From: Nitrospirota bacterium
GTDB taxonomy: Bacteria; Nitrospirota; Thermodesulfovibrionia; UBA6902
Length of the DNA stretch: 64,000 nucleotides
NCBI GenBank assembly: GCA_016234115.1
Contig: JACRHD010000060.1
Coordinates: forward strand, 41,135-105,134
Reading direction: 5' to 3'
Under the pieces are notes generated by a model that had not been told where the DNA came from, made no database searches, and worked only from the letters and a program-made list of their open reading frames with translations. The position numbers and the translations under genes are program-made. Of the stretch, positions 20 to 50,484 are shown piece after piece. Within the stretch, counting starts at the first letter, position 1. Every line of letters starts with the position of its first letter.

Positions 20-463
20 ATGTCTATGTTCATAACACGTAAAACAGATTACGCCATACGATGTATTCTTTACCTTTCAAAGGACCTTGACCGCATTGCC
101 ACTGTTGAAGAGATATCGAAAGCAGTTCATGTCCCGAAGACGTTCATGGCAAAGATACTTCAGCAACTGATGAAGGCCGGGATCGCGGGCTCTGTCCGGG
201 GTATAAAGGGAGGGTTTCAGCTTGCAAGAAATCCGGAGGACATCAACCTCCTTGAGGTCATTGAAGCCATTCAGGGTCCTTCGGCAGCCAATATATGCGC
301 TCTCGACAAGAAGGCGTGCAGTCTCAGCGGGACATGCGCCGTCCACACGGTATGGGTCGAGCTGCGCGAAGAGGTCAACAGTCGCCTGAAAAGCTGGGAT
401 TTCGGGAAACTGACGGATAGAGAAAACAGATTGTCACATAGGGCAAAATGTGATAAAAGGTAA
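20..463 (+). CDS. Rrf2-family (IscR/NsrR-like) Fe-S transcriptional regulator
   Basis: The N-terminal winged HTH reads 'TDYAIRCILYL...ISKAVHVPKTFMAKILQQLMKAGI...GGFQLAR', typical of Rrf2 proteins. Three C-terminal Cys (CALDKKACSLSGTC) are spaced like IscR/NsrR cluster ligands. It lies immediately upstream of ccoN. Confidence 0.8.
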   Translation: MSMFITRKTDYAIRCILYLSKDLDRIATVEEISKAVHVPKTFMAKILQQLMKAGIAGSVRGIKGGFQLARNPEDINLLEVIEAIQGPSAANICALDKKACSLSGTCAVHTVWVELREEVNSRLKSWDFGKLTDRENRLSHRAKCDKR

Positions 464-502
464 ATATGACATGTCTTTAACCTTTTTAAGAGGAGGCGCA
501 TC

Positions 503-1912
503 ATGAATGATTATCAATACGATAATCTGACGGTCAAAGGATTCATCACCTCCTCCATCTTCTGGGGTGTAGTAGGCATCCTCGCCGGAATCTGGATCTC
601 CATCCAGATGTGGAGTCCGTCATTGAATGTCCCCCCCTACTTCACATTCGGAAGATTGAGGGTGGTGCATACCAATATCCTGGCGTTCGGGCTCGTCCTG
701 GGATCTCTGATGGGAACATTCTACTACATCACAATGAGGCTGACCAGGAGACCTCTTCTCTTACCGAAGCTCGCAAGACTTACCTTGTATTTGTTCAACG
801 CCGCCATAGCGCTGGCCACGGTGACCCTGCTTCTTGGAATGACCCAGTCCCTTGAATACGCCGAGCTTGAATGGCCGCTCGACGTCGGGGTCGTTATTTT
901 ATGGGTGCTTTTTTCAGTCAATATTCTCGGCACTGTCATTAAAAGGAAAGAGGAACAGATGTACATCTCGCTCTGGTATATCATCGCCACGCTGATAACA
1001 ATTGCGGTGATCTACATTATCAATAACCTTTCCATCCCGGCGGGCCTCTTCAAGTCCTACCATCTTTTCGCTGGCGTCAACAGCGCCAACATCGAATGGT
1101 GGTACGGCCACAACGCGGTCGGGTCCGAACTCACAATGGCGGTCCTGGCAATATTCTATTACTTCCTGCCCAAATCCACGGGCATGCCGATATACAGCCA
1201 CAGGCTGTCGATAATCGCCTTCTGGTCGCTCGTATTCACATATCTCTGGACAGGCGCCCACCACCTTGTTTATACGCCTTTGCCGGACTGGATACAGACA
1301 CTCGGTATCGCCTTTACCGTGTTTCTCATTGCGCCGTCCTGGGGCTCGGTGGTAAACGGGTTCTATACCGTGGGCGCGGACTGGTCAAAGATGAGGACCC
1401 ATTATCTTACAAAATTCTTCATTCTCGGCATCACGTTCTACGGACTCCAGACCGTCCAGGGACCGACCCAGGGGCTCAGGGTGGTAAGCCAGTTGATCCA
1501 TTACACCGACTGGGTGCCCGGGCATGTGCATATGGGCACTATGGGATGGGACGCGCTGGTAATCGTCGCGGCCATTTACTATATCATCCCGCAGATATAT
1601 AAGACGGAGATATACAGCATAAAGATCGCAAATACCCATTTCTACCTCGTTTTGATCGGGCAACTGATCTTCTCGGTAACAATGTGGTTCACCGGGATCC
1701 AGCAAGGGGCCATGTGGAAGGCTTTAAACCCGGACGGAACGCTTAAGTACACGTTCATGGAGACCCTCGTGAAGAATTATCCCTTCTGGAAGATGAGGAC
1801 CCTTGGCGGAATTATATTCACTGTCGGGATGCTCTTTTTTATCTATAACATATACATGACGATCCGCAGGGGCAAGGAGCTGATTGCGTCAGGGGCGCAG
1901 GAGGTGGCATGA
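503..1912 (+). CDS. ccoN: cbb3-type cytochrome c oxidase subunit I (CcoN)
   Basis: 469-aa polytopic haem-copper oxidase with the conserved His ligands. It is followed by a CcoO-signature gene and a ccoGHIS-like set. An RBS (aggagg) precedes the ATG. Confidence 0.85.
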   Translation: MNDYQYDNLTVKGFITSSIFWGVVGILAGIWISIQMWSPSLNVPPYFTFGRLRVVHTNILAFGLVLGSLMGTFYYITMRLTRRPLLLPKLARLTLYLFNAAIALATVTLLLGMTQSLEYAELEWPLDVGVVILWVLFSVNILGTVIKRKEEQMYISLWYIIATLITIAVIYIINNLSIPAGLFKSYHLFAGVNSANIEWWYGHNAVGSELTMAVLAIFYYFLPKSTGMPIYSHRLSIIAFWSLVFTYLWTGAHHLVYTPLPDWIQTLGIAFTVFLIAPSWGSVVNGFYTVGADWSKMRTHYLTKFFILGITFYGLQTVQGPTQGLRVVSQLIHYTDWVPGHVHMGTMGWDALVIVAAIYYIIPQIYKTEIYSIKIANTHFYLVLIGQLIFSVTMWFTGIQQGAMWKALNPDGTLKYTFMETLVKNYPFWKMRTLGGIIFTVGMLFFIYNIYMTIRRGKELIASGAQEVA

Positions 1913-2853
1913 TGAAAGGCGAACTTTATAGAAGGCCCATACTGTTTGCTATTGTAGCTACTCTGGCCGTTCTTGTTGGAAGTATTGTTACTGCTATATA
2001 CCCGATATTTACCGAGCAGATGCATCCGAAGCTTGAAGCGCTTAAGCCCTTTACCGCCTTACAGCTTGCGGGAAGGGACATCTACCAGAGAGAAGGATGT
2101 GTTAATTGCCACACCCAGACCGTCAGGCCGCTTAAGACCGAAGTGCAGAGGTATGGCGAATACTCAAAGGCCGGGGAGTTCGCATACGACCATCCGTTTC
2201 TGTGGGGCTCCAAGAGGACCGGTCCCGACCTTGCGAGGATAGGAGGTAAATACCCCGATGCATGGCACTACAGGCATTTTGAAGATCCCGCGTCGTTCTT
2301 TGCGGAATCAAATATGCCCGCCTATGCATGGCTGAAGGACGAAAGGCTTGTTCCTTCCTCAGTGGAAGCCCACATGAAGGCGCTGAGTTTCCCGTATAAG
2401 AATGAAGAAATAGCCGCTCTTTCCGTCAAGTCGGAGCTTGACGCGCTTGTTTCTTATATGCAGGTAATAGGTACTTCCGTGGCAAAGAGACCCGTGGCAG
2501 CGACAACACATGTTGAAGTAGCAGAAGAGTCTCATCTTCAAAATCCCTTCGCAGGCGACGCGCAGGCTATAGCTTCCGGGAAAATGATCTACGCCGACAA
2601 CTGCGCAGTCTGCCATGATGATGATGCCGAAGGCGACATCGGCCCCGATCTGACCGATGATGTATTCCTTTATGCGGAAGGGGATTTACCGGATAATGAT
2701 TACTTTGAGATCATCAACAACGGCACGACGGCCGGGATAGTCGAGGAAGGACGCCGGGCAAAAGGCGGGATGCCCGCATACAAAGATGTATTAAGCAAAG
2801 ATGCGATATGGTCGGTAATCGCTTATATACGATCACTTCAGGAGAAGAAATAG
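1909..2853 (+). CDS. ccoO: cbb3 oxidase dihaem cytochrome c subunit (CcoO fused to a CcoP-like C-terminal haem domain)
   Basis: The N-terminal transmembrane segment is followed by CVNCH and the CcoO signature 'WGSKRTGPDLARIGGKY...WH..HF..P...S.MPAYAWL'. A second haem motif, CAVCHDDDAEGDIGPDL, lies in the C-terminal roughly 110 aa. The start overlaps the ccoN stop (ATGA). Confidence 0.8.
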   Translation: MMKGELYRRPILFAIVATLAVLVGSIVTAIYPIFTEQMHPKLEALKPFTALQLAGRDIYQREGCVNCHTQTVRPLKTEVQRYGEYSKAGEFAYDHPFLWGSKRTGPDLARIGGKYPDAWHYRHFEDPASFFAESNMPAYAWLKDERLVPSSVEAHMKALSFPYKNEEIAALSVKSELDALVSYMQVIGTSVAKRPVAATTHVEVAEESHLQNPFAGDAQAIASGKMIYADNCAVCHDDDAEGDIGPDLTDDVFLYAEGDLPDNDYFEIINNGTTAGIVEEGRRAKGGMPAYKDVLSKDAIWSVIAYIRSLQEKK

Positions 2854-2860
2854 AATTGTA

Positions 2861-2883
2861 GGGGCGAGGCGGCGCCTCGCCCT
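2861..2883 (+). terminator. GC-rich hairpin downstream of ccoO
   Basis: gggcgaggc-ggc-gcctcgccc is a perfect 9-bp stem located 8 nt after the stop. No U-tract follows, so this may be a stability element rather than an intrinsic terminator. Confidence 0.3.
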
Positions 2884-2963
2884 GAAGGGAGATTCACCGA
2901 ATCGCCCCTACGGGATTTCGGGTCTGACCGGAATCCGGACGAATAAAAGGAGGATGTAACTAT

Positions 2964-3413
2964 ATGTGCATGGATTACAAGAAGGAATGTTGCTGCGGCA
3001 GTAAGGTCGCCGGCTTTAATTTGAGGGACGGGGTAATGCCTGTCGGCGTTGTAAGCAGGCTTTATTGCCCCGAGTGTTCAAAGGATGTTGCTCATGACCC
3101 GGAGACTATGGTCCACGACAACGGCTGGATCATAGAATACGACATGGATGCCGCAAGGTTTATGGGCAAACAAATCTCTGTAACGAAAATTACGCCGGAT
3201 TTTCTTTTTGATGAAGGATACTGCACCTGGCGGGGAACATACCCAACGGACCACATAGATTCCGTGAGGGAGCGCGAAGAGATAATAAAACTTGCAAAGA
3301 CGGACCCTAAGAGATATTTCGCGGAAATCAGAAGATGGGGAACAGAAAGAATGGACCGCCTTGCCGCAGCCGGATGGAGGAAGGCGAATGAGCGTGAACA
3401 GTCAAAAGTTTAA
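2964..3413 (+). CDS. hypothetical Cys-rich protein
   Basis: 149-aa ORF with RBS aaggagg. It contains 'CCCGSK...CPEC' motifs. I could not recognise the family. Confidence 0.4.
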   Translation: MCMDYKKECCCGSKVAGFNLRDGVMPVGVVSRLYCPECSKDVAHDPETMVHDNGWIIEYDMDAARFMGKQISVTKITPDFLFDEGYCTWRGTYPTDHIDSVREREEIIKLAKTDPKRYFAEIRRWGTERMDRLAAAGWRKANEREQSKV

Positions 3414-3564
3414 TGGAAAGCCCGCGTGCGCGGAAAAGCCCGTGGCTTTTCCCGCGGAAATGACGTGCCCTCACTGCGGAGCGCTCGTTGAAATCTGGAA
3501 CGACGAGTACGAGGCCTCGTGCCCTCTTTGCAGAAAGACAGTGTACAGGGAGGAGTCATGGTAA
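3388..3564 (+). CDS. small zinc-ribbon protein (CxxC...CxxC)
   Basis: The ATG at 3388 is preceded by ggaggaagg. The protein reads 'MSVNSQKF...CPHCGALVEIWNDEYEASCPLCRK'. The start overlaps the stop of the upstream ORF. Confidence 0.4.
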   Translation: MSVNSQKFNGKPACAEKPVAFPAEMTCPHCGALVEIWNDEYEASCPLCRKTVYREESW

Positions 3565-3743
3565 ATGAATACGACAACTTGGAAGAGTTTGAAGCTGAAG
3601 AAACAAAAAACAAACTGCCCGCCGGCTGGCTGATACTTTTCTGGGGACTGATACTCTGGGGCATTTACTATTATGCCGCCTATAGTCCCGCCGTCAGCGG
3701 CTGGACACAGGAAAAGGCGTACGAGGAAACGTTGAAAAAATAA
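3558..3743 (+). CDS. small membrane protein resembling the CcoP N-terminus or CcoQ ('EYDN...LP.WW' plus one TM)
   Basis: RBS aggagg is followed by 'MVNEYDNLEEF...KLPAGWLILFWGLILWGIYYYAAYSP'. This pattern matches the N-terminal anchor region of CcoP, split off as a separate small subunit. Confidence 0.45.
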   Translation: MVNEYDNLEEFEAEETKNKLPAGWLILFWGLILWGIYYYAAYSPAVSGWTQEKAYEETLKK

Positions 3744-3835
3744 AGAAACCCGTTCCAACCGCTTGAGCCGCTCGAACCGCTTGAGCCGTGTAAACAGTTC
3801 AAGCGGTTCAAGCGTTAATAAAAGGAGGCTTAACC

Positions 3836-4456
3836 ATGTCAGACACATGCAGTTGTTTAGGATGCAATGTAGGCGAAACAGTACCGGACTTCAGGCTTGA
3901 GACTTACGAGCCGGCCAAGGGCGACTTCGGAGAGATCAGCCTTGAGACACTGAGGAATAATGGGAAGTGGACGATACTGTTTTTCTACCCTGCGGATTTC
4001 ACATTTGTCTGAGCTACCGAATTTGCTGCTCTGGCAGAGCAGTACGACAAGTTCAAAATGATGGACGCGGAGATCATTACAGTCAGCTCGGACACAAAGT
4101 TCGTGCACCTCGCGTGGCAGAGGGATGAAATGGAGCTGAAGGGGGTAAAATTCCCGATGGGCTCGGACACCACCGGCAAACTTGCGAGGATGTTCGGCGT
4201 TTATGATGAGAATACCGGCCTTTCATTAAGAGGCACCTTCATCATAAGTCCGGAAGGAAAGCTCATGAACTCGGAAGTCAATTTCTATAACCTCGGCAGG
4301 AACATTGACGAGCTGCTGAGAAAATTCAGGGCCAACCGCCATCTTGCGGAATACACTGCGGAGGCATGCCCTGCCCAATGGAGAAGCAACGGCGACCTGA
4401 CCCTGAAGCCTTCCGCCAAAATGGTCGGAAAGGTGCATGAAGCAATGGGGAAGTGA
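3836..4456 (+). CDS. selenocysteine-containing 2-Cys peroxiredoxin (in-frame UGA at 4010..4012 replaces the peroxidatic Cys)
   Basis: The ATG at 3836 (RBS aaggagg) opens a frame that reads ...FYPADFTFV-[TGA]-ATEFAA... and continues into ORF 4058..4456 in the same frame. The canonical peroxiredoxin motif is FTFVCPTE, so the TGA sits exactly at the peroxidatic-Cys position. The rest aligns to the AhpC/Prx fold ('VSSDTKFVHLAW', 'RGTFIISPEGKL...GRNIDELLR'). Confidence 0.75.
4026..4042 (+). promoter_or_regulatory. putative bacterial SECIS hairpin 13 nt downstream of the UGA
   Basis: ctgctct-ggc-agagcag forms a 7-bp stem with a small loop. It starts 13 nt 3' of the in-frame TGA, which is the spacing expected for a bacterial SECIS. 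Confidence 0.5.
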
Positions 4457-4520
4457 CAAGTGACGAGTAACAGGTGACAGGTGCCTTTTTACATGTTACT
4501 TGTCACTTGTTACTTGTTAC
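4453..4520. repeat. heptad-built inverted-repeat hairpin (GTGACAA GTGACGA GTAACAG GTGACAG / loop / GTTACTT GTCACTT GTTACTT)
   Basis: Four tandem GTRACRR heptads, a 14-nt spacer, then inverted copies. The first heptad contains the prx stop codon. Confidence 0.7.
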
Positions 4521-4534
4521 TATTTGGAGGATTC

Positions 4535-4630
4535 ATGGACATATCGGTCATCGCAACAATAGGTTTCACCACAATCGCAGCGCTGGGGATAGTGTTTATA
4601 TTATTAACTTCAGCCAGGAAGAGAAAATAA
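4535..4630 (+). CDS. small single-TM membrane protein (31 aa)
   Basis: RBS ggagg, then MDISVIATIGFTTIAALGIVFILLTSARKRK. It is bracketed by heptad repeats. Confidence 0.35.
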   Translation: MDISVIATIGFTTIAALGIVFILLTSARKRK

Positions 4631-4633
4631 AAT

Positions 4634-4798
4634 ATGACGTCTCAGCAGACAGCATATTTCGTCTTCGGACTCACGCTCGTTGTCATATTCACGGTAATAA
4701 TCATCTTTTACTCTTCAAAAAAGAGACACAAAGAGGTGGAGGGGCCGAAGTATAAAATGCTCGAGGATGAAGACAGAGAAGTGACGAGTGACAAGTAA
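4634..4798 (+). CDS. CcoS-like small membrane protein (divergent paralog)
   Basis: 54 aa with one TM and the tail 'EGPKYKMLEDEDRE'. The bona fide CcoS at 10202 ends 'AEKPKYRMLDDEDRQ'. The 3' end and stop of this gene lie inside a heptad repeat. Confidence 0.45.
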   Translation: MTSQQTAYFVFGLTLVVIFTVIIIFYSSKKRHKEVEGPKYKMLEDEDREVTSDK

Positions 4799-4866
4799 CA
4801 AGTGATCGGCAATTTACAAAAATCCCTCTAACTCGTTACCCGTTACTTGTTACCCGTTACTTGTTA
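4781..4866. repeat. heptad-built inverted-repeat element
   Basis: gtgacgagtgacaagtaacaagtga ... ctcgttacccgttacttgttacccgttacttgttac, running up to the ccoG start. Confidence 0.7.
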
Positions 4867-4869
4867 CTA

Positions 4870-6069
4870 ATGAAATTAAGGATACACACGTGGAGGCGTC
4901 TTGCCGGGATTGTCCAGGCGGTCATTATTATCGGTCTCCCTTTTCTCAGGACAGGCGGCGAGAGCGCGTTGCGGTTTGATATTCCGTCGCTGACGCTCCA
5001 CTTCTTCGGCGCCGGCATATGGATGGAAGATTTTTTTATCGTCCTGGTTGCCGTAATGTTCGTGACGCTTCTGCTTGCATTTATCACATTGATGTTCGGA
5101 AGGATATGGTGCGGATGGGCGTGTCCCCAGACGGTGCTCATCGATTTCACGCCCTTCGCGGACAAGATGAAATCCGGAGGCATTATATTCAAATCAGGGG
5201 CCTATGCCCTGATCTTTTTTATAAGCGTAATAGTCTCTGCAAATCTCATATGGTATTTCGTCTCGCCGTATGAATTCATAGGGAAGCTGACAGAGGGAGG
5301 TCCTGGAAATGTTACTCTTGGATTCTGGGTGGTCATGAGCGGAATCCTGTTTCTGAATTTTGCCATGCTCAGACACACCTTCTGCGCGACGGTCTGCCCT
5401 TATGCGAAACTGCAGAGCGTCCTGTTCGACGATAAGACGCTCGTTATATCCTTTGATCCGCGCAGAAAGCAAGAGTGCATGAAGTGCATGGCCTGCGTAA
5501 GGACATGTCCCGTCGGAATTGATATCAGGGAAGGGTCAAACGCCGCGTGTATAAGCTGCGCGCAGTGCATCGACGCATGCACAAACATCATGGAGCGCAG
5601 TCATAAGAAGTCCCTGATAGGATATTTCTTCGGTCTTCCGGGCACTGAGGGAAGGTTACTCCGCCGGAGCGCGGCAATCACGGGTTCGGCCTCTCTGGCG
5701 TTTCTGATTTTTTTTATATACCTTGTGCTGACACACGTTCCTCTCGACATGACCATTCTTCCCAACTACTCGTACCCTCCGCGCATCACGGCCGATGGCG
5801 GTGTCATCAACTCGTATATCCTTTCCCTTAAAAACAGGGGGAGGTCGGACGCGGAAATAGACATCACGGCAGCAGGGAAAGAAGGTGTTATCAAGTTGAC
5901 TCCCGACAGCGTACACCTCTCTGCGGGGGGACTGAAGAAATTACCTGTCTATGTACAGATTGACAATATACCAGGGAAAGAAACCCCGGTAAGCATCGAT
6001 ATATCTATAAGGTCAAAAGATTCAGGAGGCGACGCAGTCGTCAAAAAAGCAAATTTCATTATTCCGTAG
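4870..6069 (+). CDS. ccoG: cbb3 oxidase accessory 4Fe-4S membrane protein CcoG/FixG
   Basis: Carries the CcoG signature 'RIWCGWACPQT' and two ferredoxin motifs (CMKCMACVRTCP, CISCAQCIDAC). The C-terminal half is predicted periplasmic. Confidence 0.8.
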   Translation: MKLRIHTWRRLAGIVQAVIIIGLPFLRTGGESALRFDIPSLTLHFFGAGIWMEDFFIVLVAVMFVTLLLAFITLMFGRIWCGWACPQTVLIDFTPFADKMKSGGIIFKSGAYALIFFISVIVSANLIWYFVSPYEFIGKLTEGGPGNVTLGFWVVMSGILFLNFAMLRHTFCATVCPYAKLQSVLFDDKTLVISFDPRRKQECMKCMACVRTCPVGIDIREGSNAACISCAQCIDACTNIMERSHKKSLIGYFFGLPGTEGRLLRRSAAITGSASLAFLIFFIYLVLTHVPLDMTILPNYSYPPRITADGGVINSYILSLKNRGRSDAEIDITAAGKEGVIKLTPDSVHLSAGGLKKLPVYVQIDNIPGKETPVSIDISIRSKDSGGDAVVKKANFIIP

Positions 6070-6079
6070 GAAAACTAAA

Positions 6080-6137
6080 GTAACGGGTAACAAGTAACGA
6101 GTGACGAATAATTATTTAGTCACCCGTCACTTGTCAC
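6080..6137. repeat. heptad-built inverted-repeat element
   Basis: gtaacgggtaacaagtaacgagtgacga / ataattatttag / tcacccgtcacttgtcac. Confidence 0.7.
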
Positions 6138-6152
6138 TAAATGGAGTTACAT

Positions 6153-6635
6153 ATGAAAACGTTAATCATCACAGTATCAATATTCGCCCTTTCCGCTGTA
6201 GTCGGCGCCATTGTCGTCGGAGTCAATGTCTTTGACGGGGTCGTGGTTGAAAAGCCGTATGAGACGGGACTGGAATGGGACAGGATACAGAATGAACAGG
6301 CCGATTCGGGAGCGCTCAACGATAAGGGCCTCCACGCGGTTTTCGACATCAACCCGAAGCCCGTGAGGGCCATGTCCGAGCTCGTTTTCAGCATGTATCT
6401 TGAAGAATCCGGCAGACCTGTCACTGACGCTGATATTACTCTGGACCTGACGATGCCGGGAATGTTTATGGGTATCAACAGACCCGTACTTAAACACGTC
6501 AAAGACGGCAGATATGAAGGCAAGGGAGTTATCCCCGCATGTCCGCACGGGGGAAAGCAGTGGAAGGCGGAGGTGAACATTGAACGGGGCGGCAAAGTTG
6601 AGACTGCAAGTTATACTTTTGAGGTGAATCAATGA
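6153..6635 (+). CDS. FixH/CcoH-like membrane-anchored protein
   Basis: About 160 aa with an N-terminal TM. It sits between ccoG and ccoI, as fixH does. RBS ggag. Confidence 0.5.
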   Translation: MKTLIITVSIFALSAVVGAIVVGVNVFDGVVVEKPYETGLEWDRIQNEQADSGALNDKGLHAVFDINPKPVRAMSELVFSMYLEESGRPVTDADITLDLTMPGMFMGINRPVLKHVKDGRYEGKGVIPACPHGGKQWKAEVNIERGGKVETASYTFEVNQ

Positions 6636-6716
6636 CAGACAGAAAAAGGGGCAAGGGTTAAGAAAGAACCGGTCCGGGTTTTTACCCTTGACCCCTGACC
6701 CTTGACCCTCAATACT

Positions 6717-7382
6717 ATGGAACTAAGTTACACCCTCGCATTTACAACAGGCTTTCTCGGAGGCTTCGGACATTGCATAGGTATGTGCGGACCTATTATT
6801 ACAGCATATACTTTTCACAGCACTCCTGCCGGATTTTATCCGTCACCTGTCAGGAACGTTCTTCCCCACCTCTTCTACAACACAGGGCGCATTACTACGT
6901 ACATGTTCGCGGGCGCGGTAATGGGATTGACAGGTTCATTTGTGAACACGGCAGGCCGCTTAACTGGGTTTCAAAATTCAGTAGCGCTTATTGCCGGGCT
7001 CCTGATGTTAATAATGGGTATACGAATTTCAGGCATTACAGGCGGAATAACATGGCTCGAAAAACGTAACGGCCTCATTATCCGGGCAGGGAAAGGTCTG
7101 GCAGGCGGCGAAACCTTATGGATGTATTATCCCCTCGGGGCGTTATTCGGCTTTCTGCCGTGCGGCCTTTCCTATTCAGCGTTCCTGGCCGCAGCGGGAA
7201 GCGGCAGCATGCTGTCCGGCATGCTTACAACGTTCTTCTTCGGGCTCGGCACACTTCCCGCGTTACTGTTGTTCGGGCTTGCCGCCGGGTATCTGAGTAA
7301 TAAATTAAAAGGGCTGCTGTACAGATTGTCAGGAGTGATCGTCATTTTGACGGGGGGGTATTTTATTGTCAGAGCATTATAA
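6717..7382 (+). CDS. DsbD_2/UreH-like polytopic membrane protein with an HCxxMCGP motif (probable metal or thiol handling)
   Basis: Has 'GGFGHCIGMCGPII' and about six TM helices. It is located inside the ccoGHIS maturation cluster. Confidence 0.5.
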   Translation: MELSYTLAFTTGFLGGFGHCIGMCGPIITAYTFHSTPAGFYPSPVRNVLPHLFYNTGRITTYMFAGAVMGLTGSFVNTAGRLTGFQNSVALIAGLLMLIMGIRISGITGGITWLEKRNGLIIRAGKGLAGGETLWMYYPLGALFGFLPCGLSYSAFLAAAGSGSMLSGMLTTFFFGLGTLPALLLFGLAAGYLSNKLKGLLYRLSGVIVILTGGYFIVRAL

Positions 7383-7385
7383 TTC

Positions 7386-7645
7386 AAAAAAATCCCCCTT
7401 AATCCCCCTTTTTCAAAGGGGGACTTTTAGAATTCCCCTCTTTGGAAAAGACCAACAGTAGGTGCCTTAAGCAGGGGTCAGGGGGAGATTTTGTCAAAAC
7501 AAAGGTGAGTACAATGTATCCATTCAGTTATAGGGTGTATCTTTGTGCCGGAAAGAAACCCACCCCCCTCCCAGGAGGGGACCTTGTCTTTAGTCCCCTC
7601 TTGAGAGGGGTGCAGGGGTGTGTTATAACTTGTAACTGAATGGAT
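7386..7645. repeat. composite intergenic repeat (element B 7386-7425, element A 7434-7492, IR-flanked element C 7519-7645)
   Basis: B = aaaaatcccccttaatcccccttttcaaagggggactttt. A = cccctctttggaaaagaccaacagtaggtgccttaagcaggggtcaggggagatttt. C is flanked by gtatccattcagttat / aactgaatggatac and contains the palindromes cccctcttgagagggg and cccctcccaggagggg. Copies occur at 16686, 53571, 58581 and 62967. Confidence 0.75.
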
Positions 7646-7655
7646 ACAAATTCTT

Positions 7656-10097
7656 ATGCAAACATGTGACCACTGCTTACTTCAATTCCCGGACAGAGAA
7701 GCAGTCTACGGGGAAATCAAAGGCCGGAGACAGGTCTTCTGCTGTCACGGATGTATGGGTATTTTCAGTCTGATTAATGATGAGGGACTCGAAGAGTTTT
7801 ATGAGAAACGAGACTCATGGCTGCCCGGCCCCGCTTCCGACAAGCCGTGGAACGCAGCGGCCTTTACGGAACACGTGCGACAGGCCGGGAATGAACTCGA
7901 AACCGAAGTGGTCCTCGACGGCATAAGATGCGCCTCCTGCGTCTGGCTGAATGAGAAGGTCCTGGACAGGACAAAGGGAGTGACATTCGTCAGCGTCAAT
8001 TATGCCACTCATCGGGCAAGGATACGCTGGAGACCTGAAGACACCGGCCTTGATACAATCCTCAGAAGGATTGCGTCAATCGGATATACGCCTAAACCTC
8101 CTGTTGCAGCGGCATATGAAGAAGACTTGAAGGCCGGTCAGAAAGACCTTCTGATACGCCTTGGGACAGCCTCATTTTTTTCAATGCAGCTTATGCTGTA
8201 TTCCACTGCCCTTTACGCGGGATATTTCCAGGGGATTGATGAACGCACAAAAGACATTTTCCATCTCATCTCGCTGATGCTTACAACCCCCGTGCTTTTT
8301 TATTCCGGCTTTCCTTTCATAAATGGAGCGGCAAGGGGATTGCGAAACCGGGTATTCAATATGGACCTGCTTATTGTTACAGGGGCGGGCTCCGCATACC
8401 TGTACAGCATGTTCCAGATGTTTTCAGGCGGGAAGGTATATTTCGACACTGCCGCCATGATAATAACCCTCATCCTTTTAGGCAGATATATAGAGGCCGG
8501 GGCAAAGAGTAAGGCTTCACAAACAATAATCAGGCTCCTGTCTTTAAGTCCGAAGGAAGCGAAGAAAATAAAGGGGCAAGGGGCAAGGAGCAAGGGTCAA
8601 GGGTGGGGAGACACAGATTTCGAAACAGTCCTGATATCTTCTATAAAGCCGGGCGAATTGATTCAGGTGGCCCCGGGCGAGAAGATACCGCTTGACGGCA
8701 TTATGGTATCAGGATCATCAGAGGTCGATGAATCCATGCTTACAGGTGAATCAAGGCCTGTATCGAAGACAGAGGGCGCTGAGGTTTTCTGTGGTACGCA
8801 AAACTTATACGGTAACATCATTTTCGAAGTCAACAGGACCTCCGCGGACACTGTTCTTTCACAGATCATAAAGGTCGTCGGAGATGCGCAGGCGCGGCGC
8901 GCTCCGTTTCAAATGTTTGCGGACAGGGTTGTCGGCTTCTTTGTGCCGTCTGTCCTTCTTCTGAGTATCATGACATTTGCGTACCGCTTTTTAAACGGCA
9001 GCCCGGCCACCGAGGCACTGATGATTTCCATCTCCGTCCTCGTGATAGCCTGCCCGTGCGCCTTAGGTCTTGCAACGCCCCTTGCCGTACTCGCGGGCAC
9101 AACACGCGCCGCGTCAAAAGGCATATTGATCAAAGGCGGTGACGTAATAGAAATAGCAAAGAATATAGACCTTGCAGTCCTGGACAAGACAGGCACCATA
9201 ACAGAAGGCCGCCCCCTCCCCGGCCCGTTCATGACCAGAGGTCTTTCAGAAACAGAAGCCCTCAGCATCGCAGCGTCGCTTGAACGCCATTCCGAGCATT
9301 CGATAGGAAAGGCGATAGCCGGCGCGGCAAAGGGCCTTGAATTGCATGAAGTAACAGGCTTTACTGCGCATCCCGGCAAAGGAGTAAAGGGAGAGGTAAA
9401 CGGGAAGATAGCCCTCATTGGCAACAGGAGCTTCCTGGAATCTGAGGGAATCGATCTCAACCCGGACCATAGTATTCTCTCTGAATCCGTATCCCTCGAA
9501 TCAGCCGGAGCTACTGTTGTTTATTTATCTTATGACGGAGAATTCGCCGGGATATTTTCGGTGTCGGACGCCGTGCGGAAAGAAGCTGCGGAAGCAGTCC
9601 GGCTATTGCAACAGGAAGGTCTTGATGTGGAGATGATAACAGGAGATAATGGTATAACAGCATCGGCGGCGGCAAAGGATGCCTGGATAAATGAAGTAAA
9701 GGCCCGGATGTCTCCTGTTGAAAAGGCCGGTGAGATCAAAAGGATGCAGGATGTAGGAAGGCATGTGATGATGGTAGGTGACGGAATCAACGACGCTCCT
9801 GCGCTGGTGCAGGCCGACATAGGTATCGCGATGGGCAAGGGCACAGACATTGCCCTTGAAAGCTCCGACATGGTGCTGATGAGAGACGACCTCCGTCTTC
9901 TTCCCGAAGCCCTAAGCATTGCGAAAAAGACCTTCTCCGTGATCAGGCAGAATATCTTCTGGGCCTTCTTCTATAACGTGCTCGCGATTCCTCTTGCGAT
10001 AACAGGCGTCCTTCACCCTATTGCCGCAGCCGGCGCCATGGCGTTCAGCTCGTTGAGCGTGGTGGGGAATTCGTTGAGATTGTTGAGGATAAAATAA
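7656..10097 (+). CDS. ccoI: copper-translocating P1B-type ATPase CcoI/FixI
   Basis: Has the N-terminal CDHC...CCHGC motifs and an HMA-like 'GIRCASCV' motif. It also has the CPC motif (IACPCALGLATP), DKTGT, and the GDGINDAP hinge. 813 aa. Confidence 0.85.
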   Translation: MQTCDHCLLQFPDREAVYGEIKGRRQVFCCHGCMGIFSLINDEGLEEFYEKRDSWLPGPASDKPWNAAAFTEHVRQAGNELETEVVLDGIRCASCVWLNEKVLDRTKGVTFVSVNYATHRARIRWRPEDTGLDTILRRIASIGYTPKPPVAAAYEEDLKAGQKDLLIRLGTASFFSMQLMLYSTALYAGYFQGIDERTKDIFHLISLMLTTPVLFYSGFPFINGAARGLRNRVFNMDLLIVTGAGSAYLYSMFQMFSGGKVYFDTAAMIITLILLGRYIEAGAKSKASQTIIRLLSLSPKEAKKIKGQGARSKGQGWGDTDFETVLISSIKPGELIQVAPGEKIPLDGIMVSGSSEVDESMLTGESRPVSKTEGAEVFCGTQNLYGNIIFEVNRTSADTVLSQIIKVVGDAQARRAPFQMFADRVVGFFVPSVLLLSIMTFAYRFLNGSPATEALMISISVLVIACPCALGLATPLAVLAGTTRAASKGILIKGGDVIEIAKNIDLAVLDKTGTITEGRPLPGPFMTRGLSETEALSIAASLERHSEHSIGKAIAGAAKGLELHEVTGFTAHPGKGVKGEVNGKIALIGNRSFLESEGIDLNPDHSILSESVSLESAGATVVYLSYDGEFAGIFSVSDAVRKEAAEAVRLLQQEGLDVEMITGDNGITASAAAKDAWINEVKARMSPVEKAGEIKRMQDVGRHVMMVGDGINDAPALVQADIGIAMGKGTDIALESSDMVLMRDDLRLLPEALSIAKKTFSVIRQNIFWAFFYNVLAIPLAITGVLHPIAAAGAMAFSSLSVVGNSLRLLRIK

Positions 10098-10126
10098 TTA
10101 ACCACAGAGGACACAGAGAACAAAAG

Positions 10127-10191
10127 TGACAAGTGACGAGTAACAGGAGCTCAAAGAGCCCACCAGTCACTCGTTACTTGTCACTTGTTAC
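10127..10191. repeat. heptad-built inverted-repeat hairpin
   Basis: gtgacaagtgacgagtaacag / loop / gtcactcgttacttgtcacttgttac. Confidence 0.7.
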
Positions 10192-10201
10192 TTTTTATAT
10201 T

Positions 10202-10348
10202 ATGTGGAGCATACTTCTTTTAATATTTCTCACATTGTGCGCGGGGCTTGCCGCATGGCTGTTTTTCCTGTGGGCGGTCAAGAGCGGCCAGTATGATGAT
10301 GCGGAGAAGCCGAAGTATCGGATGCTTGATGATGAGGACAGACAGTGA
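10202..10348 (+). CDS. ccoS: cbb3 oxidase maturation protein CcoS/FixS
   Basis: 'MWSILLLIFLTLCAGLAAWLFFLWAVKSGQYDDAEKPKYRMLDDEDRQ' matches the CcoS consensus W..AVKSGQ(F/Y)DD.E.P. Its stop TGA is the first heptad of another half-repeat (10345-10373). Confidence 0.7.
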   Translation: MWSILLLIFLTLCAGLAAWLFFLWAVKSGQYDDAEKPKYRMLDDEDRQ

Positions 10349-12713: not shown

Positions 12714-13391
12714 CTAAACCGGCCTCCCAATCCTCTGATAGTTGGCCATGGATTTATTGCATATGTAACATGGCGCCAAAGGCTGTTCGGCAAGGGTAGA
12801 GCCGCAGACTTTGCATACGTAAAAATCAAACTTCATTTCTTCAATTCTGCCGACTATTACGGATAGAAAGAACCTGGCGTATTTGTTTAATTGGCCTATC
12901 AGCTCCTGGTGCTGCTGATGGGATTTCCACGAATACATGCAACAACTGACGGCCTCGTCATATGCATCGGTTTCCAGTTTCTTCAGGATATCGGGATAGA
13001 TTATTTCTATTTTTCGCATTTCTATTTGCGCGGCCTCTTTCAGGTTTTTCTTGGTATCTTTCATGTTGATTTCTATATGAATGTCCTGCACCTTTTCCCC
13101 GGAGGCTTCCAGGACAGCCTTATAATTGTCCGCGTGTATCTCCTCCGAAACAGCAAAAGCCCCAAACAGGTATGCAATATTGGGATAATTCTCCTGCAAG
13201 GCCTTGTCTTTAAAACTCTCGTAATGCTCATAAGCCGACATTTCAGCTAAATAGGCATCATGCAAGGCCGATACTGTTACGGGGCATTCCCTTAATGTCT
13301 TATGACATTCTTTTTCGCCCTGAGCGGGCAACGCATAGATAAGAGATGAAGCCATTGCAAGATGCAGAAACTGTCTTCTTGATAAATCCAT
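12714..13391 (-). CDS. rubrerythrin-family diiron protein with a twin-arginine (Tat) signal peptide and a C-terminal rubredoxin-like Cys4 domain
   Basis: N-terminus 'MDLSRRQFLHLAMASSLIYALPAQG'. Ferritin-like ExxH motifs (EEIH, KSHQQH). C-terminus CKVCG...CYIC. Confidence 0.55.
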   Translation of the reverse strand: MDLSRRQFLHLAMASSLIYALPAQGEKECHKTLRECPVTVSALHDAYLAEMSAYEHYESFKDKALQENYPNIAYLFGAFAVSEEIHADNYKAVLEASGEKVQDIHIEINMKDTKKNLKEAAQIEMRKIEIIYPDILKKLETDAYDEAVSCCMYSWKSHQQHQELIGQLNKYARFFLSVIVGRIEEMKFDFYVCKVCGSTLAEQPLAPCYICNKSMANYQRIGRPV

Positions 13392-16951: not shown

Positions 16952-18169
16952 GTGAAGTACGTAGAAATAAAGCCGGGTATCTTCTGGGTGGGCGCTATAG
17001 ACTGGGCGGTCAGGGATTTCCACGGCTACGTCACTCCGAAGGGAACGACTTACAACAATTATCTTATCCTGGACGAGCAGATCACCCTTGTCGACACGGT
17101 GAAATACGACTTTTCACACGTTACGATGGACAACATCAGGAACCTCATAGACCCGTCACGAATTGCAAACGTTATAATCAACCACATAGAGCCCGACCAC
17201 GCAAGCAGCATCGACAAGATAATGACTGTTGCGCCCGACGCGACCATTTATATTACCGATAAAGGGAAGAAAGGGCTGGACAGGCACTTTGATACATCGA
17301 AATGGAAATTCAGGATTGTAAAAACAGGAGACACTCTCAATACGGGGCGATACAATCTCGTATTTCTTGAGACCCCGATGCTTCACTGGCCGGATTCAAT
17401 GATGACGTACGTCAGGGAGGCAAAACTTCTTGTTTCGCAGGACGCCTTCGGCCAGCACCTCGCCACGTCCTCGAGGTTCGACGACGAATTTATCGAGTGC
17501 GCCTCTCATGCTGAACTTGAGGATGCCGTAATTGATTATTACGCAAACATCCTCATGCCGTTCGGCCAGTTGATAAAGACGAAAATCGCCGAGGTGCTGA
17601 AACTCGGACTTGATATAGACATGATCGCGCCGGACCACGGCGTTATATGGAGGAGCGGGCCCGGTCATATTATTCAAAAATATCTTGATCTGGCGGACGG
17701 CAAAGCGCACCTGAGCGTGGCCGTTATTTATGACACCATGTGGCACAGCACCGAGCGCATGACATTGCCCATAATGAAGGGCATCAAGGATGAAGGGGTC
17801 GATTGTAATGTGATCAAACTTCGCGCCACGCCGATGAGCGTAGCTGTTAAAGAATTCTGGAAGGCGAGAGGATGTCTTATAGGAAGCCCTACTCTCAACA
17901 ACATACTGTTTCCCACGGTAGCCGAGTTCCTTACTCATCTCCGCGGTCTCAGGCCCAAAAACAGGATAGTCGGCGCCTTCGGCAGTTTCGGCTGGGGCGG
18001 CGGGGCCGTAAAAGAGGCGTACGAAGAATTCGTAAGGATGAAGCTGAAAGTTTTCGAGCCTGGTTTTCAGGTGCTTTACAACCCCTCGGCTGAAGACGAG
18101 GTCAGGTGTTATGAATTTGCGAGGGAATTTGCCCGGAAGGTCAAGGAATATCACGCCGAATTCAAGTAA
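16952..18169 (+). CDS. flavodiiron protein (FprA / rubredoxin:oxygen oxidoreductase type; O2 or NO reductase)
   Basis: GTG start after ggaggtg. The metallo-beta-lactamase domain has 'INHIEPDHASS'. The C-terminal flavodoxin domain has 'IVGAFGSFGWGGGA'. Confidence 0.85.
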   Translation: MKYVEIKPGIFWVGAIDWAVRDFHGYVTPKGTTYNNYLILDEQITLVDTVKYDFSHVTMDNIRNLIDPSRIANVIINHIEPDHASSIDKIMTVAPDATIYITDKGKKGLDRHFDTSKWKFRIVKTGDTLNTGRYNLVFLETPMLHWPDSMMTYVREAKLLVSQDAFGQHLATSSRFDDEFIECASHAELEDAVIDYYANILMPFGQLIKTKIAEVLKLGLDIDMIAPDHGVIWRSGPGHIIQKYLDLADGKAHLSVAVIYDTMWHSTERMTLPIMKGIKDEGVDCNVIKLRATPMSVAVKEFWKARGCLIGSPTLNNILFPTVAEFLTHLRGLRPKNRIVGAFGSFGWGGGAVKEAYEEFVRMKLKVFEPGFQVLYNPSAEDEVRCYEFAREFARKVKEYHAEFK

Positions 18170-42515: not shown

Positions 42516-43925
42516 ATGAATAAAATCCTACTTGTTAATCCTCCTTACAATCTGGAAGTTTATAAAGAGAACAAGAATTTTTCCGTCCACCCTCCTGTAG
42601 GGCTGGCTTACCTGGCGAGTTTCATAAAGGGGCACGGATATGACGTCGAACTTATTGACGCCAATGCCCTCAACATGTCCAAAAATGAGCTCATCGATCT
42701 TCTCATTAATCATCCTGCCGGCATTATCGGAATTACAAGCGTGACCGCTACTATTAATCTTGTATGCCGTATCTGTGACAAGGTCAAAGAGAGCTCAGGC
42801 AAGGTATTGATCATAGGCGGACAACATGCGACATTTAAGGCCGAAGAAATATTGGCGGGCTGCAAATCAATTGACTATATAGTGCGCGGCGAAGGGGAGA
42901 TGACCCTGCTTCGCCTGTTGAACAGATTGAAGATCAATAAAACGGCAAGAGGACTAATGGGGATTACTTACTCTGAAGAAAACAGGACAATTTCAAACCC
43001 GCCCCGCCCTCCGATAAAGAACATAAATAAATTGCCGTTCCCCGCCTGGGAACTTTTGCCGAGATCGAGATACCGTCTTAACGGGTTCCAGGACATCGGA
43101 TTCAAGGGTGAACAATTAGGGAAGCTGATTTCCACGAGGGGCTGCCCCAATAAATGCACCTTCTGTTCGTCCGCTCATTTTTGGGGCAAACCGCGCTTTA
43201 GAAATGTTGATAATATTTTCGAGGAATTAGTGTTTCTGACGCAGAAATTAAAGGTCAGGCACATAGATTTTATGGACGACTGCCTGACGATTCCCGTTTC
43301 GAGATTCAGGGAATTATGCAACAGGATCATCGGGAACAATTTGAATTTTAAATGGAGTTGTTACTCAAGGGTCCAGAATATAAACGAAGAGCTTGTCCAA
43401 TTGATGAAAAAGGCGGGATGCTTCATGGTGCTGCTCGGGATTGAAAGCGGCAACCAGGAGATAATAAACAGCATCAGGAAGAATATTACACTGGAACAGG
43501 TCACTAACGCGGTAAAGCTGTTTAAAAAATATGATATCGACTGTCTCGGTTTTTTTATGGTCGGCCTGCCGAAGGACACCAAAGAAACGGTCCGTGAAAC
43601 AGTCGATTTTGCCAGGAAATTAAACCTCGACTTCCCTTTCTTTTCAGTCACGACGCCTTTCCCGGGCACCGAGCTGTATGACTGGTTTATGTCGAGCAAT
43701 CTTTCCCCCGGCAGTTTTCAATGGAGCCAGCTTTCCACACATGGGGCGACTGTTTATCGCACGGAGAATTTGTCTTCCGAAGAAATCAAAAAACTGTATG
43801 ATTACGCCATAAGAAAATGCTATCTCGACCCGGCTTTTATTACAAAGCTGATAATAAAAATGATTAAAAACCCGTACAAGCTTTCGAGGTACTGGAAATT
43901 ATTCAGGACCTTCATAAATGTCTGA
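42516..43925 (+). CDS. B12-binding radical SAM protein (class B radical SAM)
   Basis: The N-terminal B12-binding domain reads ILLVNPPY...VGLAYLASF. The radical-SAM cluster motif is 'STRGCPNKCTFCSS'. Confidence 0.8.
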   Translation: MNKILLVNPPYNLEVYKENKNFSVHPPVGLAYLASFIKGHGYDVELIDANALNMSKNELIDLLINHPAGIIGITSVTATINLVCRICDKVKESSGKVLIIGGQHATFKAEEILAGCKSIDYIVRGEGEMTLLRLLNRLKINKTARGLMGITYSEENRTISNPPRPPIKNINKLPFPAWELLPRSRYRLNGFQDIGFKGEQLGKLISTRGCPNKCTFCSSAHFWGKPRFRNVDNIFEELVFLTQKLKVRHIDFMDDCLTIPVSRFRELCNRIIGNNLNFKWSCYSRVQNINEELVQLMKKAGCFMVLLGIESGNQEIINSIRKNITLEQVTNAVKLFKKYDIDCLGFFMVGLPKDTKETVRETVDFARKLNLDFPFFSVTTPFPGTELYDWFMSSNLSPGSFQWSQLSTHGATVYRTENLSSEEIKKLYDYAIRKCYLDPAFITKLIIKMIKNPYKLSRYWKLFRTFINV

Positions 43926-49026: not shown

Positions 49027-50484
49027 CTAATGACTGAGCTGGTTCTTTGCTTCAAAATATTTTCTTTTTATAAATAGTGTTGATAAAAGACCATACATGC
49101 CCTTAGCCATAATTATGATAAACCTGGCCCCGGTCATTCGCTTCAGGTAAGACAGTATGATTCGCGGCCTGAAATAAAATCTTCTGTAGGTGGACTGATT
49201 AATCCTGATGAGCTCTTCACGGGTAAAGCCCTCGGCCACAAAAGTCGCGTTCAGCGTCGTCATCGCGTCCCAATCCTCTGCGAAGGTCCCAAACCGGTGT
49301 ATGTCCCTGTACGCGGGAGAGCCCGGGTAAGGAGTAAAAATGGTGAAAGCCATATCGTCCAGGGGAAGCTCCAGAGCAAGGTCGATGGTCTTTTTAAGGG
49401 TTTCATGCGTCTCCCGGGGCATCCCCATCATGAAATAGCCCTTCATGCCGATGCCGGCCTTCTTTGTCATTTCCGTCGTCTTATAGACCTGCTCCAGTTT
49501 GATCGATTTCAATAATGAATCGAGTATTGCCTGATCACCGCTTTCAATTCCGTAGCATATTTGCCAACACCCCGCTTGCTTCATCAGCTCGAGCATCTCG
49601 GGCGTAACACCGGTGACGCGAGAGAGACAACTCCAGGTCAGGTCGATTTTTTCATCTATCAGCCTTTGACAAAACGCCATCACGCGCTTTCGATTGACGG
49701 TAAAGGTGTCATCGTTGATCTGAAATTCCTTGATGCCGTATTTCTTCGTCAACAAATAAATATATTCGAATAAATAATCGAGGGAATATTGACGGATTAC
49801 CCTCCCATGAATCTCGTTTGTACAAAAAGTACATTGTCCGGGACACCCGCGGGTCGTCATGACGGTAACGGCGGGCGTGCGCTTGACGCTGAAATACGGC
49901 GGTATATATGAGGATTTCAAATCCGGGAACAAATCAACGGCCGGCAGAGGCAGCCAATCAAGGTCTTTAATAAGCTCTCGCCGTTGGGAAAGAGAGACCT
50001 CATTGCCTTTTTTCCAGATCAAACCGTTTATTTCAGCAAACCGGTCTTTTGAGGGGTTGGAAAGATGCAATAATTCAAGCATGGTAATTTCACCCTCTCC
50101 GATTACGCCGACGTCAAATTCCGAATATCGCTTTATGGTGGCCTCAGGCGCGCATGAAATATGCGGGCCCCCTATTACAGTGAGCACGCCCGGCAGAGTT
50201 CGCTTTGCTATCCCGGCGACCCTGGCGGCATCGGAAATCGCAATAGTCGGCGCCGTCAAGCCGACAATTCTGGGCCTGCAGTCGTCAAGGTATTTGCCCA
50301 GTTCATCATCGTTGAGGTCCGTGACTCCCATGTCGAGAATCCTGACCTTAAAACCGTCACGTCTCGCCACGGCAGCAATGCAGGCCAGCCCCGTCTGGAA
50401 AGATTTGCCCCCGCATATTGCGAAATGGCCATATCGTTTTGTCATGCTCAGTGGTGGATCGATCAGAAGAAGGTCGATAGACAT
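49027..50484 (-). CDS. B12-binding radical SAM protein
   Basis: N-terminal B12 domain (LLLIDPP...) plus the cluster motif 'TTRGCPGQCTFCTNE'. Confidence 0.8.
   Translation of the reverse strand: MSIDLLLIDPPLSMTKRYGHFAICGGKSFQTGLACIAAVARRDGFKVRILDMGVTDLNDDELGKYLDDCRPRIVGLTAPTIAISDAARVAGIAKRTLPGVLTVIGGPHISCAPEATIKRYSEFDVGVIGEGEITMLELLHLSNPSKDRFAEINGLIWKKGNEVSLSQRRELIKDLDWLPLPAVDLFPDLKSSYIPPYFSVKRTPAVTVMTTRGCPGQCTFCTNEIHGRVIRQYSLDYLFEYIYLLTKKYGIKEFQINDDTFTVNRKRVMAFCQRLIDEKIDLTWSCLSRVTGVTPEMLELMKQAGCWQICYGIESGDQAILDSLLKSIKLEQVYKTTEMTKKAGIGMKGYFMMGMPRETHETLKKTIDLALELPLDDMAFTIFTPYPGSPAYRDIHRFGTFAEDWDAMTTLNATFVAEGFTREELIRINQSTYRRFYFRPRIILSYLKRMTGARFIIIMAKGMYGLLSTLFIKRKYFEAKNQLSH

Follow-up and report, generated by a model that had tools for sequence, protein, structure and literature searches.

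A predicted selenocysteine peroxiredoxin encoded within the cbb3 oxidase locus of a Nitrospirota bacterium

Peroxiredoxins with selenocysteine (Sec) at the peroxidatic site have been on record in bacteria since PrxU of Eubacterium acidaminophilum, which was shown biochemically in 2001 to be such an enzyme (Sohling et al., 2001). Sec-peroxiredoxins with a TxxU active site are now an established family (PMC13188914, PMC1794560, PMC5029168), for which the motif is given as PxxxTxxU (PMC13188914). Twelve were counted in bacterial genomes in 2006, with five inferred independent conversions of Cys to Sec (PMC1794560); 43 genes came from Sargasso Sea data (PMC1088965), and the count for bacterial genomes in 2016 stood at 91 proteins in 78 organisms (PMC5029168). 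An earlier, sequence-only reading of the locus described here had called Sec-peroxiredoxins rare in bacteria; in view of these survey counts, that description is out of date and no longer accurate.

The gene of interest, prx, lies on the + strand of the window (the whole stretch of DNA that was analysed, 64 kb in length) and is predicted with high confidence to encode a genuine selenoprotein, in which Sec, inserted at a recoded UGA, replaces the catalytic Cys of a peroxide-detoxifying enzyme. Its coding sequence (3836..4456, +), traced by translation and by its match to Pfam AhpC-TSA, comprises 206 codons including Sec59, followed by the stop codon TGA 4454-4456. The frame from ATG 3836 onwards holds a single internal stop, the TGA at 4010-4012, in the context FYPADFTFV-TGA-ATEFAALAEQY; the Sec-spanning peptide of the product would be FTFV-U-ATEFAALAEQYDK. 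A ribosome-binding site, GGAGG (3824..3828, +), can be read in the sequence 7 nt 5' of ATG 3836, and this start matches the N-termini of the homologues in alignment A1, which contains the prx product and 23 full-length homologues of 64-81% identity. Translation bears out the earlier proposal of one frame of about 206 codons across TGA 4010-4012; ORF finders list just a 132-aa piece of it, 4058-4456, from ATG 4058. The N-terminal tail of the product (residues 1-15, 3836-3880) is Cys-rich, with CSCLGC in prx and CC or CxC in most relatives, and is a possible extra redox or metal site.

When the TGA is read as Cys, the prx product matches Pfam AhpC-TSA (PF00578) with 125.9 bits against a gathering score of 26 (E=1.2e-36). 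Its best matches among solved structures are the AhpC proteins 5y63 and 1we0 (E=7e-43), in which the TGA is aligned with the peroxidatic Cys of FSFVCPTE; the alignment to AhpC structures confirms the earlier statement that the UGA coincides with this residue. The active-site motif P52-x3-T56-x2-U59 (PADFTFVU; 3989..4012, +) corresponds to PADFSFVC of solved AhpC, with P52, T56, and V58 invariant in A1, and ends in the UGA codon putatively read as the peroxidatic residue Sec59 (4010..4012, +), a position that is TGA or TGY in relatives. The conserved active-site Arg132 (codon 4229..4231, +) is invariant in A1 and aligned to the R of the AhpC motif 'RA/GTF'; the PxxxTxxC/U motif and its Arg are therefore present as P52, T56, U59, and R132, all of them invariant in A1 except for the C/U site itself. 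Cys178 (codon 4367..4369, +), in the motif A-C-P-A-Q-W, is aligned to the resolving Cys of VCPAxW in 5y63 and 1we0, and C178, P179, and W182 are invariant in A1, so that the resolving Cys of a typical 2-Cys peroxiredoxin is found in ACPAQW. The FTFVCPTE motif named by the sequence-only reading holds at its peroxidatic position but not at its Pro: the clade has FTFV(C/U)ATE, with an invariant Ala. Because the TGA and Cys178 align with the peroxidatic and resolving Cys of AhpC, and because P52, T56, R132, and C178 are invariant, the product is, by homology, assigned as a typical 2-Cys peroxiredoxin of the AhpC/Prx1 subfamily, for which an intersubunit bond joining the peroxidatic and resolving residues and a dimeric or decameric assembly would be expected.

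The prx gene was compared with relatives at the 80 closest loci, obtained from a scan with one genome per bacterial species. These are mostly Nitrospirota, Nitrospiraceae, and Thermodesulfovibrionia MAGs from subsurface or groundwater metagenomes; some are labelled Acidobacteriota, Planctomycetota, Rokubacteria, or Syntrophobacteraceae. The orthologous codon is TGA in 68 of the 80 and TGC or TGT in the remaining 12, giving 69 TGA genes when the window prx is included; a metagenome contig (L081) also has TGA at this codon. The in-frame UGA is aligned with Cys of database homologues, and the TGA/TGY split among relatives is the Sec/Cys pair pattern seen in true selenoproteins. All 120 of the database protein matches listed are full-length (189-223 aa); 22 of those aligned carry Cys, and the nearest database protein (P0006, from JGI; 81% identity) has W at the Sec site, yet its DNA has TGA. 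As far as sequence can tell, the comparative evidence for Sec at UGA 4010-4012 is decisive.

That the TGA is a nonsense mutation in a pseudogene, or stands in place of TGC/TGT through faulty assembly or sequencing, would agree with the way in which gene callers split prx, listing just the 132-aa ORF 4058-4456, and with the Cys found in the nearest full-length database proteins. However, the TGA is shared by 68 independent assemblies of other species and by the one metagenome contig, and neither purifying selection nor codon periodicity is altered downstream of it: across the 69 genes, the mean entropies of the three codon positions are 0.47/0.35/1.37 ahead of the UGA and 0.48/0.29/1.41 behind it, and the frame stays open for 145-158 codons past the UGA in every one of them. 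A conserved hairpin, described below, is moreover specific to the TGA genes. The pseudogene or error reading is effectively refuted, and we regard it as extremely improbable.

Cys forms occur here and there among the Sec forms of a neighbour-joining tree of 81 sequences, and parsimony counts five changes. This scatter fits the picture of dynamic exchange between Sec and Cys known for the Sec-peroxiredoxin family; since relatives of a Sec query are over-represented in the sample, no direction of change is read from the tree. One sub-clade of Sec-peroxiredoxins (L019, L020, L021, L032, L036, L037, and L041) has PAAFTFVU...FVQLAW in place of PADFTFVU...FVHLAW; Asp54 to Ala and His91 to Gln change jointly in this group, as might be expected of two residues that interact close to the active site.

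The putative SECIS hairpin (4024..4044, +) has a 9-bp stem (4024-4032/4036-4044) and an apical loop GGC (4033-4035), with a conserved core at 4026-4042. The 7-bp stem ctgctct/agagcag, as first noted from the sequence, is located at 4026-4032/4036-4042, starting 13 nt past TGA 4010-4012, and lengthens to 9 bp via G-U and U-A pairs. The published bSECIS model sets constraints on the loop (3-9 nt) and stem (4-16 bp), on the presence of G in the first two loop positions, on the distance from UGA to loop (16-37 nt), and on the folding energy (at most -7.5 kcal/mol) (PMC13188914). The hairpin lies within all four: it combines a 3-nt loop with a 9-bp stem; its loop context U-GGC-A fits the pattern N1-G-[G|U]-N-N2, with G first in the loop; the spacing from UGA 4010-4012 to the loop is 20 nt; and the folding energy is -12.0 kcal/mol. 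The bacterial-SECIS spacing that the sequence-only reading had assigned to it is thus borne out by these four published criteria. Taken as a single sequence, the hairpin is not significantly more stable than dinucleotide shuffles (z=-0.74 for 66 nt; z=-1.85 for 41 nt, where 9 of 200 shuffles fold equally well), so that weight is placed on the comparative evidence. An Rfam search of the whole window returned no match for the hairpin, its sole match being a tRNA-Pro, and thus cannot decide the SECIS question.

The hairpin segment, GCTGCTCTGGCAGAGCAG, is nearly invariant in the 69 TGA genes. Since the Cys genes conserve the encoded AALAEQ to the same degree at the protein level, third codon positions provide a clean test at the RNA level: over codons +5 to +10, third-position entropy is 0-0.43 bit in the TGA genes against 0.65-1.92 bit in the Cys genes, and deviations at the third positions of the hairpin amount to 10/414 in the former against 43/72 in the latter (Fisher p=1e-32). 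The corresponding counts for flanking codons are 279/621 and 62/108. Pairing is intact in 96.8% of the cells of the stem across the 69 TGA genes. Two of the pairs have undergone compensatory double changes, with C-G in place of U-A in 5 genes and A-U in place of C-G in 1, and both changes alter amino acids. The hairpin sequence is under RNA-level selection in the TGA genes only, and its conservation there is far beyond chance. The codon directly before the UGA (4007-4009) is GTC in 64 of the 69 Sec genes, and GTT, GTA, GTC, or GTG in the Cys genes (0.38 vs 1.78 bit); its near-fixation in the Sec genes suggests that the sequence context 5' to the Sec codon is constrained.

The ATG at 4058 and the ORF 4058-4456 that ORF finders give from it would also allow for a split or truncated thioredoxin-fold protein lacking peroxidase activity, with termination at UGA 4010 and separate synthesis of the C-terminal 132 residues. 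Yet this fragment lacks the entire PxxxTxxU active site, no ribosome-binding site precedes 4058, and codons +1 to +4, between TGA and ATG, vary in the manner of coding sequence (entropy 0.03/0.00/1.36). The ATG at this codon is furthermore missing in 21 of the 69 orthologues, which shows that independent initiation is not the conserved mode. Two separate products are thus extremely unlikely, and the continuous frame with Sec at the UGA is the reading followed here.

Decoding of the UGA without selenium, either as Trp or Gly by code reassignment or as Cys or Trp by near-cognate suppression, could be supported by the translation of the orthologous TGA as W in P0006 and by the fact that no Sec machinery is visible in the window. 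No tRNA-Sec (selC) was found in the 64 kb by ARAGORN or Rfam, which gave only the tRNA-Pro; no selA, selB, or selD was found among the scanned window ORFs (NCBIfam, Pfam); and a SelD N-terminal motif (a weak pattern) had no match in the window or in the 81 loci. However, 17 of the 52 ORFs in the window end in TGA, prx included; TGA is an ordinary stop in the window, which excludes a reassigned genetic code. The terminal UGA of prx (4454) has no hairpin at a suitable distance and acts as a stop. In addition, W or G at the peroxidatic site would inactivate the enzyme, and the conserved SECIS-type hairpin points to Sec, as does a tRNA-Sec near the orthologue in L019, a Nitrospiraceae MAG. A standard amino acid at this codon is therefore very improbable.

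The L019 orthologue is 78% identical to the prx product and has TGA at the Sec codon. The tRNA-Sec lies 4.6 kb upstream of it on the same contig (1412-1505, adjoining a tRNA-Ser(UGA)) and was detected by ARAGORN and by Rfam (RF01852, 71.4 bits vs a gathering score of 47); it lends indirect support to the presence of Sec machinery in the organism of the window. Nitrospirae are named among the lineages with selC within or overlapping selB (PMC13188914), whereas a search for selB beside the L019 tRNA-Sec found no long open frame reaching the tRNA on its strand, though a minus-strand open frame lies upstream of the tRNA; the L019 lineage may therefore differ. A scan of the window for other TGA-bridged ORFs yielded no candidate for a second selenoprotein: the remaining TGA-bridged candidates appeared to overlap longer ORFs in another frame or on the other strand, or the start region of ccoS (9977-10348).

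The mechanism that these features would support is drawn from bacterial Sec decoding, 2-Cys peroxiredoxins, and selenoperoxidases (PMC13188914, PMC8533274). Following the bacterial SECIS model, hairpin 4024-4044 would recruit SelB-GTP-Sec-tRNA(Sec) to a ribosome that has paused at UGA 4010-4012, and Sec would be inserted there in place of termination. The selenolate of U59, held in a pocket of P52, T56, and R132, would attack H2O2 or an organic hydroperoxide to form a selenenic acid; condensation of this acid with Cys178 from the partner subunit would yield a selenenylsulfide. A thiol reductase would regenerate the enzyme, a thioredoxin-type reductant being likely; no reductant of the prx product was identified in the window. 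Judging from the gene neighbourhoods, the enzyme would remove peroxide as part of the O2/ROS defence of a microaerotolerant anaerobe, together with the cbb3 oxidase, flavodiiron, and rubrerythrin-like proteins.

The position of prx inside a cbb3 oxidase locus, also part of the sequence-only reading, is upheld by the Pfam and NCBIfam annotation of its neighbours. The cluster (20..10348, +; delimited by Pfam, NCBIfam for ccoS, and the ORF list) is encoded throughout on the + strand: it opens with an Rrf2 regulator (20-463), ccoN (503-1912), a ccoO fused to a cytochrome c domain (1909-2853), the Cys-rich 149-aa orf149 (2964-3413), and a small FixP_N-like protein (3519-3743), and continues past prx with two small membrane ORFs (4535-4630 and 4634-4798), ccoG (4861-6069), a fixH-like gene (6141-6635), DsbD_2 (6702-7382), the ccoI ATPase (7656-10097), and ccoS (about 10133-10348; NCBIfam). 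The two small ORFs, the first with GGAGG upstream and the second of 54 aa, each resemble a single transmembrane helix, and the second is CcoQ/FixQ-like in size and shape; they occupy 4474-4798 instead of a 93-aa ORF (4474-4755) that is probably spurious. The product of orf149 has no Pfam or NCBIfam match. Its gene is an insertion that separates ccoO/P from the FixP_N-like gene and is missing from that position in L001 and L004. In 12 other loci, homologues of orf149 adjoin Sec-peroxiredoxin, flavodiiron, or rubrerythrin genes; the protein could belong to an oxidative-stress neighbourhood as a member not yet characterised.

The placement of prx between the FixP_N-like gene and ccoG recurs in eight relatives (L001, L004, L005, and L008-L012), and prx lies directly upstream of Rrf2-ccoN in L051, as a Cys form, and in L052, as a Sec form. 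In 31 loci it adjoins a gene for a flavodiiron protein and in 11 a rubrerythrin-like gene; the window has homologues of both, a flavodiiron (flavorubredoxin-like) gene at 16952-18169 (+) and a rubrerythrin-like gene at 12714-13391 (-). As these recurrent neighbours handle O2 or peroxide, they support, by association only, a peroxide defence tied to O2 reduction. The terms 'apparent anaerobe' and 'coupled to O2 reduction', which the sequence-only reading had used, are both what we infer from gene neighbourhoods. The window also holds two genes for B12-binding radical-SAM enzymes (42516-43925, +, and 49027-50484, -), and the rubrerythrin-like, flavodiiron, and radical-SAM genes are consistent with an anaerobic or microaerotolerant lifestyle. 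Between about 30 and 64 kb, genes for sugar modification and glycosyltransferases predominate over much of the sequence, and several ORFs there belong to no known family.

A bolder view, which we offer tentatively and consider rather unlikely as a whole, is that the Sec form is the majority state of the clade in subsurface Nitrospirota/Thermodesulfovibrionia, hidden by annotation through truncated gene calls, and that the enzyme is a dedicated partner of O2-reducing enzymes such as the cbb3 oxidase and the flavodiiron protein, under Rrf2 control. If so, its task would be to clear the peroxide that arises as traces of O2 are respired or scavenged by nominal anaerobes, and the three arrangements of prx with cco genes (inside the cluster, upstream of Rrf2-ccoN, and beside ccoG) would reflect selection for co-expression, not ancestry. 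A literature search combining Thermodesulfovibrionia, cbb3, and peroxiredoxin found no papers.

The cbb3 cluster also contains long hairpins. Nine of the ten long inverted repeats in the window (arms of at least 18 nt) mark five sites in or beside its intergenic gaps (2858-2911, 3757-3814, 4451-4521, 4779-4868, and 10122-10195), the tenth being a palindrome within ccoG (5545-5576). Two of these sites, identified from their inverted repeats, flank prx: a long intercistronic hairpin upstream of it (3757..3814, +; -34.1 kcal/mol and z=-5.0 for a 92-nt segment) and one directly past its stop (4451..4521, +; -36.9 kcal/mol, z=-6.9). The long hairpins of the cluster are very stable (z=-5 to -7), and the arm AAGTGACAAGTGACGAGTAACAGG, built from 7-nt GTGAC/GTAAC units, is common to 4451-4521, 4779-4868, and 10122-10195. 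They look like a REP-like family, and are absent from the corresponding positions around prx in L001, L004, L011, and L012.

Standard gene calling truncates prx to a 132-aa fragment, while 68 of the 80 closest genomes encode the Sec form; because of this truncation, metabolic reconstructions of subsurface Nitrospirota would under-count both peroxide defence and selenium dependence. The value of the locus lies in a corrected annotation and in a selenoperoxidase whose association with O2-reducing enzymes is conserved among subsurface Nitrospirota. It is a further clear example of peroxide removal based on selenium beside a high-affinity oxidase, in a lineage usually called anaerobic. Knowledge of Sec decoding and of peroxiredoxin chemistry is unchanged by it.

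The gene belongs to a class of bacterial selenoproteins known since 2001. With the bacterial Sec-peroxiredoxin family as a whole it shares the AhpC-TSA fold, the PxxxTxxU motif with peroxidatic Sec, a SECIS hairpin directly 3' of the UGA, a mixture of Sec forms and Cys orthologues, and a leaning towards anaerobic hosts; the Nitrospirota-centred FTFVUATE clade may be either the surveyed Sec-peroxiredoxin lineage (reference WP_011365628.1) or a separate conversion of Cys to Sec. Like PrxU, which comes from a strict anaerobe, the prx product is a peroxiredoxin with Sec at the peroxidatic site, and it matches the PrxU profile (NF040737, peroxi_PrxU) over 193 residues (E=4.8e-55); its score of 186.8 bits, however, is below the equivalog cut-off of 270, so that it is not a PrxU orthologue. 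It further differs from PrxU in its host, which is Nitrospirota-like where that of PrxU belongs to the Firmicutes, and in its context of cbb3 oxidase and oxidative-stress genes. It agrees with AhpC (TIGR03137; PDB 5y63, 1we0, and 1yep) at the peroxidatic and at the resolving position (FxFVC/U...VCPAxW) and would be expected to run through a typical 2-Cys cycle as AhpC does, whereas its score of 191.1 bits is below the TIGR03137 cut-off of 272 and no ahpF was found adjacent to prx or among the annotated ORFs of the window. What distinguishes the prx product from AhpC is its predicted Sec in place of Cys, the Ala in place of Pro after the catalytic residue, and the Cys-rich N-terminal tail.
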